Positions 14,912 through 38,024 of a DNA stretch of 64,000 nt are shown piece by piece. Positions within the stretch are counted from its first letter, which is position 1. Each line of letters opens with the position of its first letter. This stretch comes from Eledone cirrhosa. Taxonomy: Eukaryota. The notes below the pieces were generated by a model. The model saw only the letters and a program-made list of their open reading frames with translations. It searched no databases and was not told the DNA's origin. Where the stretch lies: assembly GCA_964016885.1 (NCBI GenBank), contig OZ024745.1:66650001-66714000 (forward strand), read 5' to 3'. Both the position numbers and the translations under genes were made by a program.

Positions 14912-15383
14912 GAAAATTTAAGTAAGTAAGTAAAAAAATTTTTTAAAATTTTTTTAAAAGATATTTTCTTATTTTACGTCTTTTATATTATTGTTCTGCA
15001 CCCTCCTGCATTGAACCACCTAGGTACTATGACATAGCCTGTGTATTTGCTGGCATGGACGTACATCTGTGCGCCTATGTTAGTTGATATATTAAATTAT
15101 CTATATTTATCTCCAAATCACTGATTTGTCGAGCAAACCTGCCAAAACCACTTCAAAATTTTTTTTGGGGTGTTAGTAGGCGTCAGTCATCTTACCATCC
15201 CATTCCTTCTAACTGGCCTCTATGTCACGTGATTGATTCTTTAGAATCGGCCATTTGACTGGAAGCAGTGAGAATTTCAGTACATAGAATCCAGTCCTCG
15301 CCTAGCTGTTCTTTCTACCGAATTATTATTTTTATATGAGCCGCCAGTGTCCGCGCATTGCCTGGAGGCTCAGCTGAGAATAG

Positions 15384-15465
15384 ACTCCCTGATGACGCAA
15401 TGAATTCTCGACAGTTGGATTATGTAACTGTCTTTATCCCATTGCAGAAACTAATTAGTTGGAGT
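15384..15465 (+). ncRNA. Type I hammerhead ribozyme (family B)
   Basis: ACTCC CTGATGA C GCAATG...CATTGC A GAAA CTAATTAG TT GGAGT; inner stem GACAGTT/AACTGTC. Confidence 0.85.
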
Positions 15466-15600
15466 GAAAATTTAAGTAAATAAGTAAAAAATTTTTTTAA
15501 AATTTTTTTAAAAGATATTTTCTTATTTTACGTCTTTTATATATATATATATATATATATATATATATATATATATATATATATGTATATATATATATAT

Positions 15601-18600
15601 TTCTTTAGGTTTGTTGGTTCACCACTGGATAGAATTGGTCATTCTGTATGGTCAATCTTGGTGTAATATTGTGGAGAGTACTCAACGTAGTGCAGTTCAA
15701 CCGTCTTCGTGTGTGCAGCTGGTGTTGCGAATACGGAGTTAATTATAAATAAGAGACAGAGACAAAGAGGACGACTGACCAGCCAGCTGCTTTCACCTCG
15801 GCCAGTCGCCCTCAAAGTGACGGCAACTCAAACTACTAATGACCATCTGTTGAGGGGGCGAAGGCTTATAATGCACTACCACCTCTCCGTCAAAGAAAAA
15901 GGGGAAGAAAGAAAGGAAGAAAGAAGAAAAGAGGAAGAAAGAAGTCAGCGTAAGGGTCACACTACAGTCATGCTAGAAAACGCCGCGAAAAATGCTACTC
16001 CAAAGAATCTATATTTAACAAAGGCATATATAATTGTTTCTACTTTAGGCACAAGGCCAGCAATTACCCAGTGCATTACTGATACTTTTATTTTATCGAC
16101 CCCGTCAGGATGAAAGGCAAAGTCAACCTCGGCGGGATTTGAACTCAGATCGTAAAGGGACGTCCGACCCTCTACCGATACTGCCAATCCACCGCCCTTA
16201 CAAAGGCATATATAATGGGGGTCTGTATGGTCTAATATGTGAACCGAATATTGGAACGTTAAACTTATGGTCGAGTTATAGGATGAAATTAAATTAAAAA
16301 ATATTAAATGGCAAAATGATAAATTGAAAAATAATTTATTAGAAAATTAAAAAATTAAAGGTTAAGGTAGCGAGATTTATATAATGAACTTACAGAGAGA
16401 GTCTTATATTAAAAAGTTAATCCCGATTAGATATCAGGTTGGGATATAGAGTAAAGATTTCGATTGTGAACCCCATCCAGCACCTCCTAACCACTAGTCA
16501 GCCAGTTACGAGTGGTATCGTCCAGCGAAAGAAATGGAAATTAATATTTCCGAGTACTCTAGGAACGTAGCTACCTTAGGCCCCAGGAATGCTAGCGGGA
16601 AGTCTGCAAGTTCGACAGGCCATCGCCTATACCAAACGTATATTATTAATTCACACATGAGGGGTTTATTTACGTGCCAGTAGAGGCATGATACAGTTAA
16701 CAGTTATACCTAAGCCTGGAGTTTATAGGTATAAGTATAATATGGCGGCCAAAACAGGCGGCGCGGTGGGACCGGGGCAAAGCAACCCGCTCCGAGTAAT
16801 TTCGTTTACCGAAAGAGGGAAATTTATTTTTCGTTTAGCGAAAAGGGCAAATTTATTTTTCCAAGCATTCAAGGAAGGCTGAACTTTCCGAGTGCCCAGT
16901 GCGCAGCCGGGAAAAGCCACCACATAAGTCGAAGGTAGCAACCCAATGAAAAGTGCAAATAGACCATAATTATTTTAAAGTCCCAGTTAGTCCGGGTTAT
17001 AAGTAGTGTGGTTCTTTGGTGGGTAGGGGTTATGAAAGGTGCATAATGACCTGAGTAAGGAAAGTTAGAAAAAAAAATAAAAGCAGGATACAAAGACAAA
17101 ATACAAAGATAAAGATAAAATACAAAGATAAAGAATACATTGATAAAAATACATTAATAAATTAATAAAAAATTAATAAAAAATTAATAAAAGTAAATAA
17201 CTAGGGATGTAGTAAGACGGAAGTATATAAGAACGTATCGGAGGAATCACAGTAAAGGGGAAATACAATATAGATCAAGTTGTAGTAAGATAATACAGGT
17301 TGTACATATAGATATAGAGGATGGATGAGATGGAATGGTAACAGGTGGTACCTAGTGTAAAGTTCGGGTCTCCGAATTCAGTGTGAGTCACAAAAAAGTC
17401 CTGAGGTATAGAGTAGAGAAATCAGTCAATACAATACATGTTTTAGTATGATACGTAGAGTCTTGTCGGAATCCGAATCTTCCCGACAAGGAAGCAGTAT
17501 CGGGTGGGTCGTAGATAAAGCACAGAGCAGCCAAAATCCGAATGGTAAGTAGATCAGTTAATCCCATGCTGGCAATAGCTGTACACTGAAGTCAGTGCCG
17601 CTGTTCAATATTACATTTGGAAGTGCTCAACATTATTGGAGCATTATTTCTTTAGGTTTGTTGGTTCACCACTGGATAGAATTGGTCATTTCGTATGGTC
17701 AATCTTGGTGTAATATTGTGGAGAGTACTCAACGTAGTGCAGTTCAAGCGTCTTCGTGTGTGCAGTTGGTGTTGCGAATACGGAGTTAATTATAAATAAA
17801 ATAACAGGAGGCCGGACTGGTGTAAATCCTAGAAAGGTTTATTATAATATAATCATTTCAATGACCGGGTTCCATATGAATCCGGTGATATAATCAAGTA
17901 TGGAACATAACAAAAGAATATGTAAAAAACCATGGGTCCGAAAAGTCAAAGACAGAGACAAAGAGGACGACTGACTAGCTAGCTGCTTTCACCTCGGCCA
18001 GTCGCCCTCAAAGTGATGGCAACTCAAACTACTAATAACCATCTGGTGAGGGGGCCAAGGCTTATAATGCACTACCATCTCTCCGTCAAAGAAAAAGGGG
18101 ATGAAAGAAAGGAGGAAAGAAGTCAGCGTAAGGGTCACACTACAGTCATGCTAGAAAACGCCGCGAAAATGCTACTCCAAAGAATCTATATTTAACATAT
18201 CCCATCCTGATATCTGATCGAGATTAACTTTTTCATATAAGACTCTCTCTGTAAGTTCATTATATAAATCTCGCTACCTTAACCTTTAATTTTTTAATTT
18301 TCTAATAATTTACTTTTCAATGTATCATTTTGCCATTTAATATTTTTTAATTTAATTTCATCCTATAACTCGTAACAAGTTTAACGATCCAATTTTCGGT
18401 TCACACATTAGACCATACAGACACCCATTATATATGACTTTGTTAACTTTGCCTTTCATCCTTACAGGGTCGATAAAATAAAGTACCAGTAATGCACTGA
18501 GTATTTGCTGGCATTGTGCCAAAAGTAGAAACAATTATATATGCCTTTGTTAAATATAGATTCTTTGGAGTAGCATTTTTCGCGGCGTTTTCTAGCATGA

Positions 18601-18972
18601 CTGTAGTGTGACCCTTACGCTGACTTCTTTCTTCCTCTTTTCTTCTTTCTTCCTTTCTTTCTTTCTTCCCCTTTTTCTTTGACGGAGAGGTGGTAGTGCA
18701 TTATAAGCCTTCGCCCCCTCAACAGATGGTCATTAGTAATTTGAGTTGCCATCACTTTGAGGGCGACTGGCCGAGGTGAAAGCAGCTAGTTGGTCAGTCG
18801 TTCTCTTTATCTCTGTCGCTGATTTTTCGGACCCATGGTTCTTTACATATTCCTTTGTTATGTTCCAATACCTAATGATATCACCGGATTCATATGGAAC
18901 CCGGTCATTGAAATGATCATAGTATGATAAACCTTTCAAGGATTTACACCAGTCCAGCCTCCTGTTATTTTA
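15601..18972. mobile_element. Family A non-autonomous PLE-type element: tandem repeat (period 2047) plus terminal inversion
   Basis: 15601-16020 repeats at 17648-18196; 18197-18972 is an inverted copy; no RT ORF; degenerate HHRs at about 17843-17900 (-) and 18868-18925 (+, CTAATGA core); (TA)n flanks. Confidence 0.8.
16035..16199 (-). mobile_element. SINE nested in family A element, 17-bp TSD
   Basis: TSD ACAAAGGCATATATAAT at 16018-16034 and 16200-16216; partial counterpart at 18443-18535 in the inverted arm. Confidence 0.85.
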
Positions 18973-19120
18973 TATATATATATATATATATATATATATA
19001 TATATATATATATATATATATATATATATATATATATATATATATATATATATATGTATGTATATATATAAAGAATGAATAATAACAGGTAGACATCATA
19101 AAAAGGTAATTTATTCCGAG

Positions 19121-19243
19121 TGCTTACAAATGTTTCAGTAGTAGTTATACAGCCCAGTCATGCTATGTACAATTGATAATTAATAAATATTTGATTGCAG
19201 AAACGTAATTTTCAAATGCTGCGACTACCATTTCCTCAGAGCA
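19121..19243 (-). ncRNA. Hammerhead ribozyme with long stem II domain (PLE left end)
   Basis: TGCT CTGAGGA AATGGTAGT...ACTACTACT GAAA CATTTG TA AGCA. Confidence 0.7.
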
Positions 19244-36645: not shown

Positions 36646-36725
36646 TATCTCCTGATGATTCCGAACTCAATGGATTTCCTATTAATAGGATATCTAAAAA
36701 TACGGATGAAACCATGGTAGGGATA
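36646..36725 (+). ncRNA. Type I hammerhead ribozyme (family E, copy 2)
   Basis: Identical to copy 1, 660 nt downstream. Confidence 0.88.
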
Positions 36726-37118
36726 GAGTTACGGTATGTACACAGTTCTTCTATGTTTGATTTTACACCGAATTGCATATGGTTAATTATGTACTTGGTC
36801 GATTTATGCATGCTGTCGAAATGTTGGATAAATAACCTGCTGTGGATACCGCGAAGAAGCCACTCTCGTTTGTTTGTCGGAGATTTCTTCATAGGAGCTT
36901 TTATACTTATGGCTTAGTATAATTGATTTTTTATATGGTAGATTGTGCTGTTTGGCAGAGGAAATGGAGTATATATTTTGTTTATCTAATAATTCTGTAG
37001 ACATGATTTATAATATATATATATATATATATATATATATATATATATATATATATATATATATAAAAGACGTGAAATAAGAAAATTTTAAAAAATTAAC
37101 ATACTTACTAAAATTTTC

Positions 37119-37199
37119 ACTCCAACTAATTAGTTTCTGCAATGGGATAAAGACAGTTACGTAATAAACTGTCGAGAATTCATTGCGTCATCAGGGAGT
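37119..37199 (-). ncRNA. Hammerhead ribozyme (family B)
   Basis: ACTCC CTGATGA CGCAATG...CATTGCA GAAA CTAATTAG TT GGAGT on the minus strand. Confidence 0.85.
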
Positions 37200-37651
37200 C
37201 TATTCTCAGCTAAGTCTCCAGGCAATGCGCGGACACTGGGGACTCATATAAAAATAATAATAATTCGGTAGATGGAAAAGCTAGCGGGGACTGGATTCCA
37301 TGCACTGAAAAGCTCGCTGTCACTGGTCAAATGGCAGATTCTAAAGAATCAATCACGTGACACTGAGGCTAGTCGGTAGGAGTGGGATGGTAAGATGACA
37401 GAAGCCTACTAACACACCAATAAATTAGTAGTGGTTTTGGCAGGTTTGCTCGACAAATAAGTAATTTGGAGATAAATATAGAGAATTTAGTATATCTACT
37501 AACATATGCGTACAGATGTACGCTAATGCTAGCAAATACACAGGTTATGTCATAGTACCTAGGTGGTTCAATGCAGGAGGATGCAGAACAATAATATAAA
37601 AGACGTAAAATAAGAAAATTTTAAAAAATTAACTTACTTACTAAAATGTTC

Positions 37652-37732
37652 ACTCCAACTAATTAGTTTCTGCAATGGGATAAAGACGGTTACGTAATAA
37701 ACTGTCGAGGATTCATTGCGTCATCAGGGAGT
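37652..37732 (-). ncRNA. Hammerhead ribozyme (family B)
   Basis: Same motif, intact, 533 nt from the other copy. Confidence 0.85.
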
Positions 37733-38024
37733 GTATTCTCAGCTAAGTCTCCAGGCAATGCGCGGACACTGGGGACTCATATAAAAATAATAATAATTCG
37801 GTAGATGGAACAGCTATATATATATATATATATATATATATATATATATATATATATATATATATATAAAGTTTGTGTGTGTGTTCTTAAGCAGAATTAA
37901 TGCTTAATTTGTTATTATTAGGCAATAAGAAATAAAATTTTATTTTGATATAATTATATTTAAATAATTGCAAACATTTTAATTCCTAAAATTCACAGGT
38001 CATGTACATATATTATTATTTATG

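Follow-up and report, generated by a model that had tools for sequence, protein, structure and literature searches.

Insertion ends and template use of hammerhead-motif repeats at (TA)n tracts in Eledone cirrhosa

Repeats at (TA)n tracts of the window

The window analyzed here, a stretch of 64,000 nucleotides from Eledone cirrhosa (assembly GCA_964016885.1, contig OZ024745.1, positions 66,650,001 to 66,714,000 of the forward strand), is AT-rich (≈33% GC) and dense in (TA)n tracts. Self-comparison with BLAST, after masking of microsatellites, identified several repeat families in it, here called A, B, D and E, and a further element starting at position 11850 (the 11850 element; Table 1). On the strength of this comparison and a reading of the end sequences, copies of all five are reported to be longer than one unit and embedded in TA repeats. 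Each unit of families B, D and E carries a motif resembling a hammerhead ribozyme. An earlier note on this DNA had attributed such copies to rolling-circle reverse transcription. Our own reading, on which we are evenly divided, is that the non-coding hammerhead-motif repeats were inserted by a Penelope-like reverse transcriptase–endonuclease, which started DNA synthesis at either side of a break and probably went round a single unit-length RNA, possibly a circle, more than once. Genome-wide counts refer to the whole assembly around the window, 3.0 Gb.

The window contains two copies of family B, B1 and B2. Positions in the family B unit are written with an M and those in the family E unit with an E. 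Both B copies terminate in ...ACGTCTTTTATA(T) followed by (TA)n, at a point where the internal unit reads on TATTGTTCTG, and both have (TA)n on both flanks. For B2, the 3' end at 37057 lies within the tract 37009–37065 and the 5' end at 37816 within the tract 37815–37868. The common 3' end was measured at 82 nt downstream of the predicted cleavage site (M472 versus M554), in line with the ≈80 nt given in the earlier note, and the 5' ends differ as it had said, that of B2 lying at about M315.

The termini that the note had listed for the other families were confirmed as well. Family D ends in GTATTAAATAT followed by (AT)n, where its unit continues TATACTC, and family E in GATTTATAAT followed by (AT)n, where its unit continues AATATATTGC. 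Family A ends twice in CTGTTATTTTATA followed by (TA)n (at 2086 and 18974), and the 11850 element twice in AACAATAT followed by (AT)n (at 14675 and 48340). The bare 8-mer AACAATAT is not rarer than expected by chance (16 matches versus 11.75 expected), and it counts as a terminus only because of its context. The copy lengths of B1, B2, D and E also agreed with those noted before (Table 1). The classification of the 11850 element as a Penelope-like element (PLE) was not supported: its open reading frames (ORFs) gave no Pfam match, and it showed no DNA similarity to the abundant PLE of this genome.

A second fixed end, overlooked earlier, lies beyond the first in family B (by 118 nt), family E (≈95 nt), family A (≈170 nt) and the 11850 element (47 nt). 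In the smaller family A insertion, the minus arm passes through the plus-arm terminus (1717–1729) and ends ≈170 nt beyond it, at 1563, beside (TA)n. The minus arm of the 11850 element likewise passes the end site of its plus arm (11897–11904) and stops 47 nt past it, beside (TA)n at 11850, a second end of the tail type. The two ends of family E are E657–660 (...GATTTATAAT) and about E93–98 (...GTAAACCTTTATAT). Among 15 two-armed E loci, 11 had both ends, one per arm, and none had the same end twice. For family D, 61 of 64 matches ended at the one site, the longest copy measured 1.84 units, and no second end was seen among 40 scored genome places, for which the matches were analyzed and the loci were not fetched.

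The hammerhead-like cores were recognized by eye, without support from a covariance model. A type I arrangement, with CUGANGA, GAAA and a UH cut site, helices I–III and helix I open, was found in B and E, and in a less clean form in D. Helix II opens with a C·A mismatch in B and a U·U mismatch in E, and helix III is palindromic. The motif is present in every unit: in B1, a second copy from 14834, in the 5'-partial unit, has lost the 5' strand of helix I and retains the 3' half (14886–14912), in E, a second copy lies at 35986–36068, and in D, the 3' half is repeated at 32528–32551. Past the predicted cut, the copies continue for 82 nt in B, about 296 nt in E and about 190 nt in D. Between the two B subfamilies, represented by B1 and B2, the hammerhead region is identical at 81 of 84 positions (96.4%) versus 396 of 477 (83.0%) elsewhere, and the core and helices are identical at 47 of 47 positions in subfamilies that differ by 17% elsewhere. 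The B, E and D motifs are thus like type I hammerhead ribozymes, for which self-cleavage is predicted.

With non-coding tandem copies of low GC content (0.34–0.38), longest stop-free stretches of 55–110 amino acids and a motif in each unit, families B, E and D appear from their sequences to be new members of a kind already known, the animal (metazoan) retrozymes without long terminal repeats (LTRs); a search for primer-binding sites or polypurine tracts was not part of this assignment.

Table 1. Coordinates of repeats, hammerhead-like motifs and related features in the window (a caret marks the predicted cut)
Feature	Position	Strand	Description
Family A head-to-head insertion	1563..2086		plus arm ends CTGTTATTTTATA at 2086, followed by (TA)n
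11850 element, head-to-head	11850..14675		plus arm ends ...CCCCAAGTATAACAATAT at 14675, followed by (AT)n
(AT)n microsatellite	14672..14832		common to B1 5' end and 11850-element 3' end (AACAATAT, 14675)
Family B copy 1 (B1)	14833..15542	+	1.28 units of 554-nt unit; 5' end M398, 3' end M554 (...ACGTCTTTTATAT), inside (TA)n
Family B type I hammerhead-like motif	15385..15466	+	ACUCC-CUGAUGA-helix II (GCAAUG/CAUUGC, long insert)-GAAA-CUAAUUAG-UU^GGAGUG; predicted cut after 15460
(TA)n tract	15538..15600		contains B1 3' end (15542) and second-type 3' end of family A minus arm (15604)
Second, larger family A composite	15604..18974		nested repeats; second-type minus-arm end 15604; plus-arm end CTGTTATTTTATA 18974, followed by (TA)n
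Old PLE fragment	30742..31852	+	C-terminal GIY-YIG endonuclease part and 3' region; 85–69% identical to abundant PLE family
Family D copy	32516..33463	+	1.30 units of 727-nt unit; (TA)n on both sides; ends GTATTAAATAT
Family D hammerhead-like motif	33151..33278	+	CUGAUGA...GAAA-CAAUUG-UU^UGGAAAGG; predicted cut after 33270; weaker than B and E
Family E inverted arm	35619..35655	-	37 nt (E62–98); ends at second fixed site ...GTAAACCTTTATAT beside (TA)n; overlooked by the earlier note
Family E plus-strand arm	35651..37018	+	2.07 units of 660-nt unit; ends GATTTATAAT, followed by (AT)n; 5' end at recurrent E612
Family E hammerhead-like motif	36646..36728	+	UAUCUC-CUGAUGA-...-GAAA-CCAUGG-UA^GGGAUAGAG; predicted cut after 36719
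Family B copy 2 (B2)	37057..37816	-	1.42 units of 534-nt unit; older subfamily, 86% identical to B1

Ends, arms and units of family B across the genome

A genome search with family B gave 921 candidate places, of which the best 39 were scored, and 38 loci outside the window were fetched. Together with B1 and B2 this made a set of 40 loci, comprising 63 pieces, that were aligned to a concatenated unit. The 3' ends fell at two sites, M554 in 35 of the 63 pieces (...ACGTCTTTTATAT) and about M118–122 in 23 (...AAATTATCTATAT). One further piece left the fetched stretch, and four were rearranged or poorly aligned, including B2, whose 3' end is nevertheless plain in the sequence. All resolved ends adjoin (AT)n. 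Insertions in the genome number roughly 1000 for family B and more than 3000 for family E. In the whole genome, exact 23-mer words across the junctions occurred 983 times for the first end and 795 times for the second, and the word that reads through occurred 2262 times; the reversed words, used as controls, gave 0, 2 and 0 matches, respectively. The ends are thus not random, as 58 of 63 pieces stop at two sites. A sharp peak of 3' ends at a distance from the cleavage site, which the earlier note had named as a check, is real in family B, but there are two peaks (M554 and about M118) and not one.

The two ends are strictly paired. Head-to-head arms, their 5' ends meeting in the middle, were present at 22 of the 40 loci. 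In 19 of these 22, one arm ended at M554 and the other at about M118, and in no case was the same end used twice; the other three were cut off or rearranged. Independent choice of ends at the 35:23 ratio would give 19 mixed pairs out of 19 with a probability of about 1e-6. Among the 18 single-piece loci, a microsatellite lies directly at the 5' end in 15; one has a hidden inverted arm of 30 nt that stops at the second end, another a 26-nt inverted piece and the last a non-repeat flank. The sharp 3' ends do sit on short TATAT-type matches to the target, as the note had proposed. However, the TATAT sites at M99–104 and M345–349 were not used as an end by any of the 63 pieces, and since at least two such sites in the unit go unused, microhomology alone does not choose the end. 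The strict pairing, one end per arm, points instead to an ordered complex of enzyme and RNA.

The 5' ends of the B pieces vary continuously, also beyond one unit, as the note had anticipated. Arm lengths ranged from 0.1 to 13 units, and 49 of the 63 pieces exceeded one unit, including pieces at very young loci with 0 differences. A self-complementary A/T run 3' of the motif, at unit positions 491–530 (window 15479–15518), is a slippage hot spot with 6–14% differences per 10-nt window versus about 0.2% elsewhere, and several arm-to-arm junctions fall there.

After masking of mutational hot spots, the difference between units of one locus was 0.46% (mean of 36 loci) versus 0.94% between loci (741 pairs), and divergence within the locus was the lower of the two at 33 of 36 loci. 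Tandem units as diverged within loci as between them, the outcome that would have told against repeated copying, were therefore not what we found. Variable sites per locus were bimodal: 116 were singletons, 38 were shared by all units and 12 lay in between. When variants fixed in one arm were compared with the other arm (65 comparisons), all units of the other arm carried the variant in 55, some units in 5 and none in 5, and the exceptions lie at homopolymer borders. The median divergence between arms of a locus was 0.29%, and in five loci there were 0 differences both within and between arms. A pooled between-arm divergence of 0.97%, about the between-locus level, was set aside as it is dominated by one degraded locus (L036).

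Individual variants show the same pattern. At locus L038, all four units of the two arms have the variant 320G>A, which is absent from the rest of the 3.0 Gb. All units that span the site carry the variants at L018 (5 of 5) and L035 (14 of 14), and their other carriers are a few single units without the linked markers. Private mutations common to the tandem units, which the earlier note had named as support, are thus present at these three insertions, whose template-specific variants recur in every unit of each arm. The origin of these variants lies either in source loci that the assembly lacks or in a change to the RNA that preceded copying. Two candidate observations were dropped: 273G>A, at first taken as private, had 263 genome matches and is a subfamily marker, and A-to-G changes, an excess of which would be a possible sign of RNA editing, made up only 2 of 6 private variants.

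Across the predicted cut, columns M466–480 showed no substitution or indel in 152–157 units. The predicted point of cutting and ligation is thus seamless, which speaks against imprecise jumps from end to end of cut monomers. Run-off on a cut linear RNA would predict 5' ends at the cut, but none of the 63 pieces starts at M473. Smaller clusters of 5' ends were present at M386–402 and M450–454.

A coding Penelope-like element and the template of the repeats

The only Pfam domain match in the tested ORFs of the window was a GIY-YIG endonuclease fragment at 30840–31436, in the old PLE fragment of Table 1; nothing else was found in the ORFs of the 11850 element, of an inverted repeat at 19–23 kb or of the 28–31 kb region. 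Used as a query, this fragment gave 20,815 first-look candidate places in the genome. The abundant PLE has many copies with open frames of 900–905 amino acids and many copies with identical match scores. In ten fetched loci (L048–L057), its unit is 3133 nt and its pseudo-LTR 1154 nt. The arms measured 1.3–1.4 units in three loci, with one arm that left the fetched stretch at 1.7 units or more, and the loci carry head-to-head inverted arms. In 8 of 8 loci with both ends in view the ends were paired, one arm ending in ...AACGTTTATA before (TA)n and the other 40 nt beyond, in ...CCTCCTCC before (AT)n.

Families B and E, family A, the 11850 element and the reference PLE therefore have the same insertion architecture: (TA)n targets, two fixed ends with one per arm, and variable 5' ends. 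The presence of this layout in a coding PLE means that the retrozyme families bear the footprint of PLE-type insertion. An autonomous PLE encodes both a reverse transcriptase of the PLE type and a GIY-YIG endonuclease; families B, D and E lack a long ORF and can thus be at most non-autonomous passengers.

In the mechanism that we propose, a PLE enzyme would carry out target-primed reverse transcription (TPRT) at (TA)n, each 3'-OH of the cut tract annealing to one of two sites presented by the RNA. The template would be a one-unit RNA that cutting by the hammerhead and ligation had made circular, and the circle would let synthesis continue until capture of the cDNA end, which often falls at AT-rich positions. 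The longest arrays would afterwards be reshaped by unequal exchange. The earlier note had reasoned that a linear cleaved monomer would give ends at the cleavage site, which presumes priming at the 3' end of the RNA, and PLE-type insertions do not prime there. Its rolling-circle model held in part. The single template, the seamless cut and the two sharp ends agree with it, and our results fit a single unit copied repeatedly, for which a circle would be the simplest form; against it, the PLE builds longer-than-unit arms without a recognizable hammerhead.

Several observations weigh against the mechanism in this form, and the first concerns the hammerhead. The 3133-nt PLE unit contains no CUGAUGA word, and its sole CUGANGA word, CUGAAGA, lies inside the ORF and was not judged to belong to a hammerhead. 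The PLE therefore makes longer-than-unit arms without a recognizable hammerhead, and the pattern alone does not require a ribozyme-made circle. Naiad PLEs likewise form pseudo-LTRs without hammerheads (PMC8557442), and in the parts of the literature covered here, canonical hammerheads are described as universal outside Naiad and Chlamys. In the repeats themselves, no Rfam hammerhead match was obtained at the gathering score for the window, at E ≤ 1 for 10–40 kb or at E ≤ 10 for 161-nt stretches of B and E. The helix II insert of 40 nt or more is a likely reason, and as Rfam is blind to these motifs, the ribozyme call rests on the reading of the core and on its conservation. A sequence link to the enzyme was not seen either: when the 3' regions of B and E were aligned locally to the 3' end of the PLE, the scores did not exceed those of shuffled sequences, and a short resemblance, ACGT(C)TTTATA, was rejected as not significant.

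The remaining points concern the arrays and their sources. The sampled B loci are the best-scoring of the 921 candidates, which tilts the set to young, full-unit copies. For the variants of L038, L018 and L035, no source unit with the linked markers was present in the 3.0-Gb assembly. A missing homogeneous source array would rescue a linear model, and unassembled or lost sources are a live possibility; since no single-unit source was found either, the argument against a lost source array is weakened. More 5' ends than expected lie shortly downstream of the predicted cut (8 of 63 at M478–486 versus about 1 expected). This cluster may stem from a nick in the template, from a structural pause or from capture at the AT-rich self-complementary sequence. 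Finally, the 13-unit arm of L035 (G000:C15:37217686-37226635) contains a repeated three-unit block, in which units 6–8 match units 9–11, and the older arrays L045 and L046, of 13–15 units, alternate A and G at M482. Such multi-unit blocks need either multimer templates or later unequal exchange. These higher-order arrays (L035, L045 and L046) still end at the two fixed sites, and two L035 units have 14–17 extra A's in one homopolymer.

The L035 block and the L045/L046 alternation show that exchange or block duplication does occur, and the 12 partially shared sites would also fit a model in which insertions are at most one unit long when made and gain further units by unequal crossing-over or replication slippage. 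As a general explanation we consider such later growth very improbable. More than three-quarters of the B pieces (the 49 of 63 mentioned above) exceed one unit, including those at very young loci without differences, and both inverted arms are often multi-unit. Moreover, exchange cannot turn a copy of at most one unit, without an internal repeat, into a 1.3-unit copy, and the read-through words stand at 2262 versus 983 for the first end.

Another model has the same enzyme and two-sided priming, but an RNA that is linear and longer than one unit, either by read-through of an existing copy or as a terminally redundant RNA that re-aligns by homology as in retroviral strand transfer. We regard this as unlikely, although it deserves serious consideration. 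The hammerhead-less PLE, with the same arms and paired ends, and the Naiad PLEs would both be accommodated, as would the multi-unit blocks and the alternating units, and homology-guided re-alignment also yields seamless junctions. In family E, arms of n+0.07 units recur in 7 of 21 loci, with 5' ends at E604–626, and these could mark a defined 5' end of the RNA. However, E612 adjoins a TATATAT stretch, so microhomology capture would explain the hot spot as well, and the E 5' ends fit either alternative alike. On the other side, L038, L018 and L035 would each need a homogeneous source array that was lost or not assembled, the bimodal classes of variable sites (38 in all units versus 12 partial) are unlike copies of heterogeneous arrays, and a conserved hammerhead would work against intact multimers.

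A third alternative keeps a single-unit template without a closed circle: a cut, unligated RNA whose two ends the hammerhead helices keep in contact (a nicked circle), or a precise jump from the 5' to the 3' end of a linear unit, like that of telomerase or DRT2. End-to-end jumps of known retrotransposon enzymes often gain or lose bases, which counts against such repeat addition here, where M466–480 is unchanged in all units that cover it. There is also no 5' end exactly at M473. The enrichment of 5' ends just 3' of the cut, at M478–486, could mark a nick, and the one-template-per-insertion result fits as well. In addition, PLE reverse transcriptases are sister to telomerase (PMC8557442), and bacterial DRT2 builds concatemeric cDNA on a non-circular RNA (PMC12039810). 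Taken together, we consider this alternative improbable. Returning to the unit-length circle, single-unit copying and the seamless junction are observed, and it is the multi-unit blocks of L035 and the hammerhead-less PLE that speak against its necessity.

Neighboring features and known systems

A U4 match on the plus strand at 28512–28593 covers the first 70–80 nt (Rfam U4, 64 bits; gathering score 46) and breaks off in ...AAAACTATATA; it is probably a truncated U4 pseudogene or retrocopy, and the old PLE fragment is found about 2 kb downstream of it. The large inverted repeat has arms at 19068–20550 and 22007–23655 that are 89–97% identical, and it starts at the (TA)n tract 18971–19070, with (AT)n at 23812–23913, about 157 nt past the right arm. 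It looks like a further head-to-head insertion with a one-sided extension. Three near-perfect palindromes or hairpins are self-complementary over 27524–27685 (98.8%), 31948–32419 (90.5%) and 35150–35373 (92%), the last beginning where a 312-bp (TA)n tract ends. They could be elements like miniature inverted-repeat transposable elements (MITEs) or very short two-armed insertions, and they account for Rfam matches to microRNA families, all below the gathering score and on TA-rich hairpins, which were treated as noise. A dispersed repeat of ≈130 nt, 90–95% identical among its copies (7374–7515, 16026–16163, 18442–18542, 26503–26666, 38024–38192 and 52339–52463) and containing ...GGATGAAAGGCAAAGTCAACCTCGGCGGGATTTGAACTCAGA..., looks like a tRNA-derived short interspersed element (SINE), and it is also nested in the family A composite.

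Families B, E and D resemble the metazoan retrozymes described so far (Cervera and de la Pena 2020, PMC7229834; reviewed in PMC7761336; Li, Clavereau and Pollet 2026, bioRxiv 10.64898/2026.07.22.740005) in their non-coding, AT-rich, head-to-tail copies of fewer than two to many units, and in the type I hammerhead-like motif in each unit, with a weak, palindromic helix III. For those elements, mobilization by PLEs from circular RNA has been proposed, with cDNA longer than one unit. The families differ in their units of 534–727 nt, compared to about 170–400 nt in the circular RNAs described, and in a helix II with a long insert and a motif that Rfam misses. Circular RNAs of such repeats and a rolling model have been published for coral, mussel and axolotl (PMC7229834). 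The idea of a primed reverse transcriptase that circles a circular RNA to make cDNA longer than one unit is likewise already in print (PMC7229834 and PMC7761336; for PLEs, PMC6765202).

According to PMC7761336, no conserved motif indicated the mobilizing element, while Li, Clavereau and Pollet (2026) derive retrozymes from PLE pseudo-LTRs. The latter text does not contain the terms "template", "target site" or "TPRT", and mentions microsatellites in another context only. In the passages of these three papers covered here we found no analysis of insertion ends (Supplementary Figure S9 of PMC7229834 was outside the scope), and a search of the retrozyme, hammerhead and Penelope-like literature, supplements outside the scope, found no junction mapping of retrozymes. 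What the present analysis adds are the single-template, seam and hammerhead-less-PLE results.

The layout of PLEs was described by Craig et al. (2021, PMC8557442) as a pseudo-LTR, an inverted 5'-truncated copy, a "tail" of 30–40 bp at one end and a bias for (TA)n, and the origin of the tandem and inverted copies and of the tail is called undefined in that paper. Families B, E and A, the 11850 element and the PLE of this genome match this description in their partial tandems, head-to-head arm, one-end extension and (TA)n target. In contrast to the elements in PMC8557442, the retrozyme families have no ORF, tails of about 95–170 nt and arms of up to 13 units. They also differ in that no sequence link between their 3' regions and the abundant PLE was found.

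In twin priming by LINE-1, both ends of the cut target prime on the RNA and two inverted arms result, whose 5' ends meet within the insertion. The insertions described here differ in using two fixed priming sites. Their arms have overlapping content, either arm may be longer than one unit, and the direct arm has its 5' end away from the site at which the inverted arm was primed. A likeness to bacterial DRT2 (PMC12039810) lies in the repeated copying of one short RNA template into tandem DNA by a reverse transcriptase; that system differs in being a prokaryotic defense, in which the structured RNA is not circular and nothing is inserted into the genome.

These results add no new kind of element. 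The junctions tie retrozymes to PLE-type insertion and narrow the template to a single unit, whether circular or linear, that is copied again and again. Our fuller proposal, which is tentative and which we would not yet bet on, is that PLE enzymes hold one unit-length RNA circle and copy it from both cut ends, starting at two fixed, paired sites, with each strand circling a variable distance. If this is true, one mechanism would account for the pseudo-LTRs, inverted arms and one-sided tail of all PLEs and for the tandem retrozymes of animals, and these young families, with about 1000 datable insertions each, would be a natural data set for its proof.

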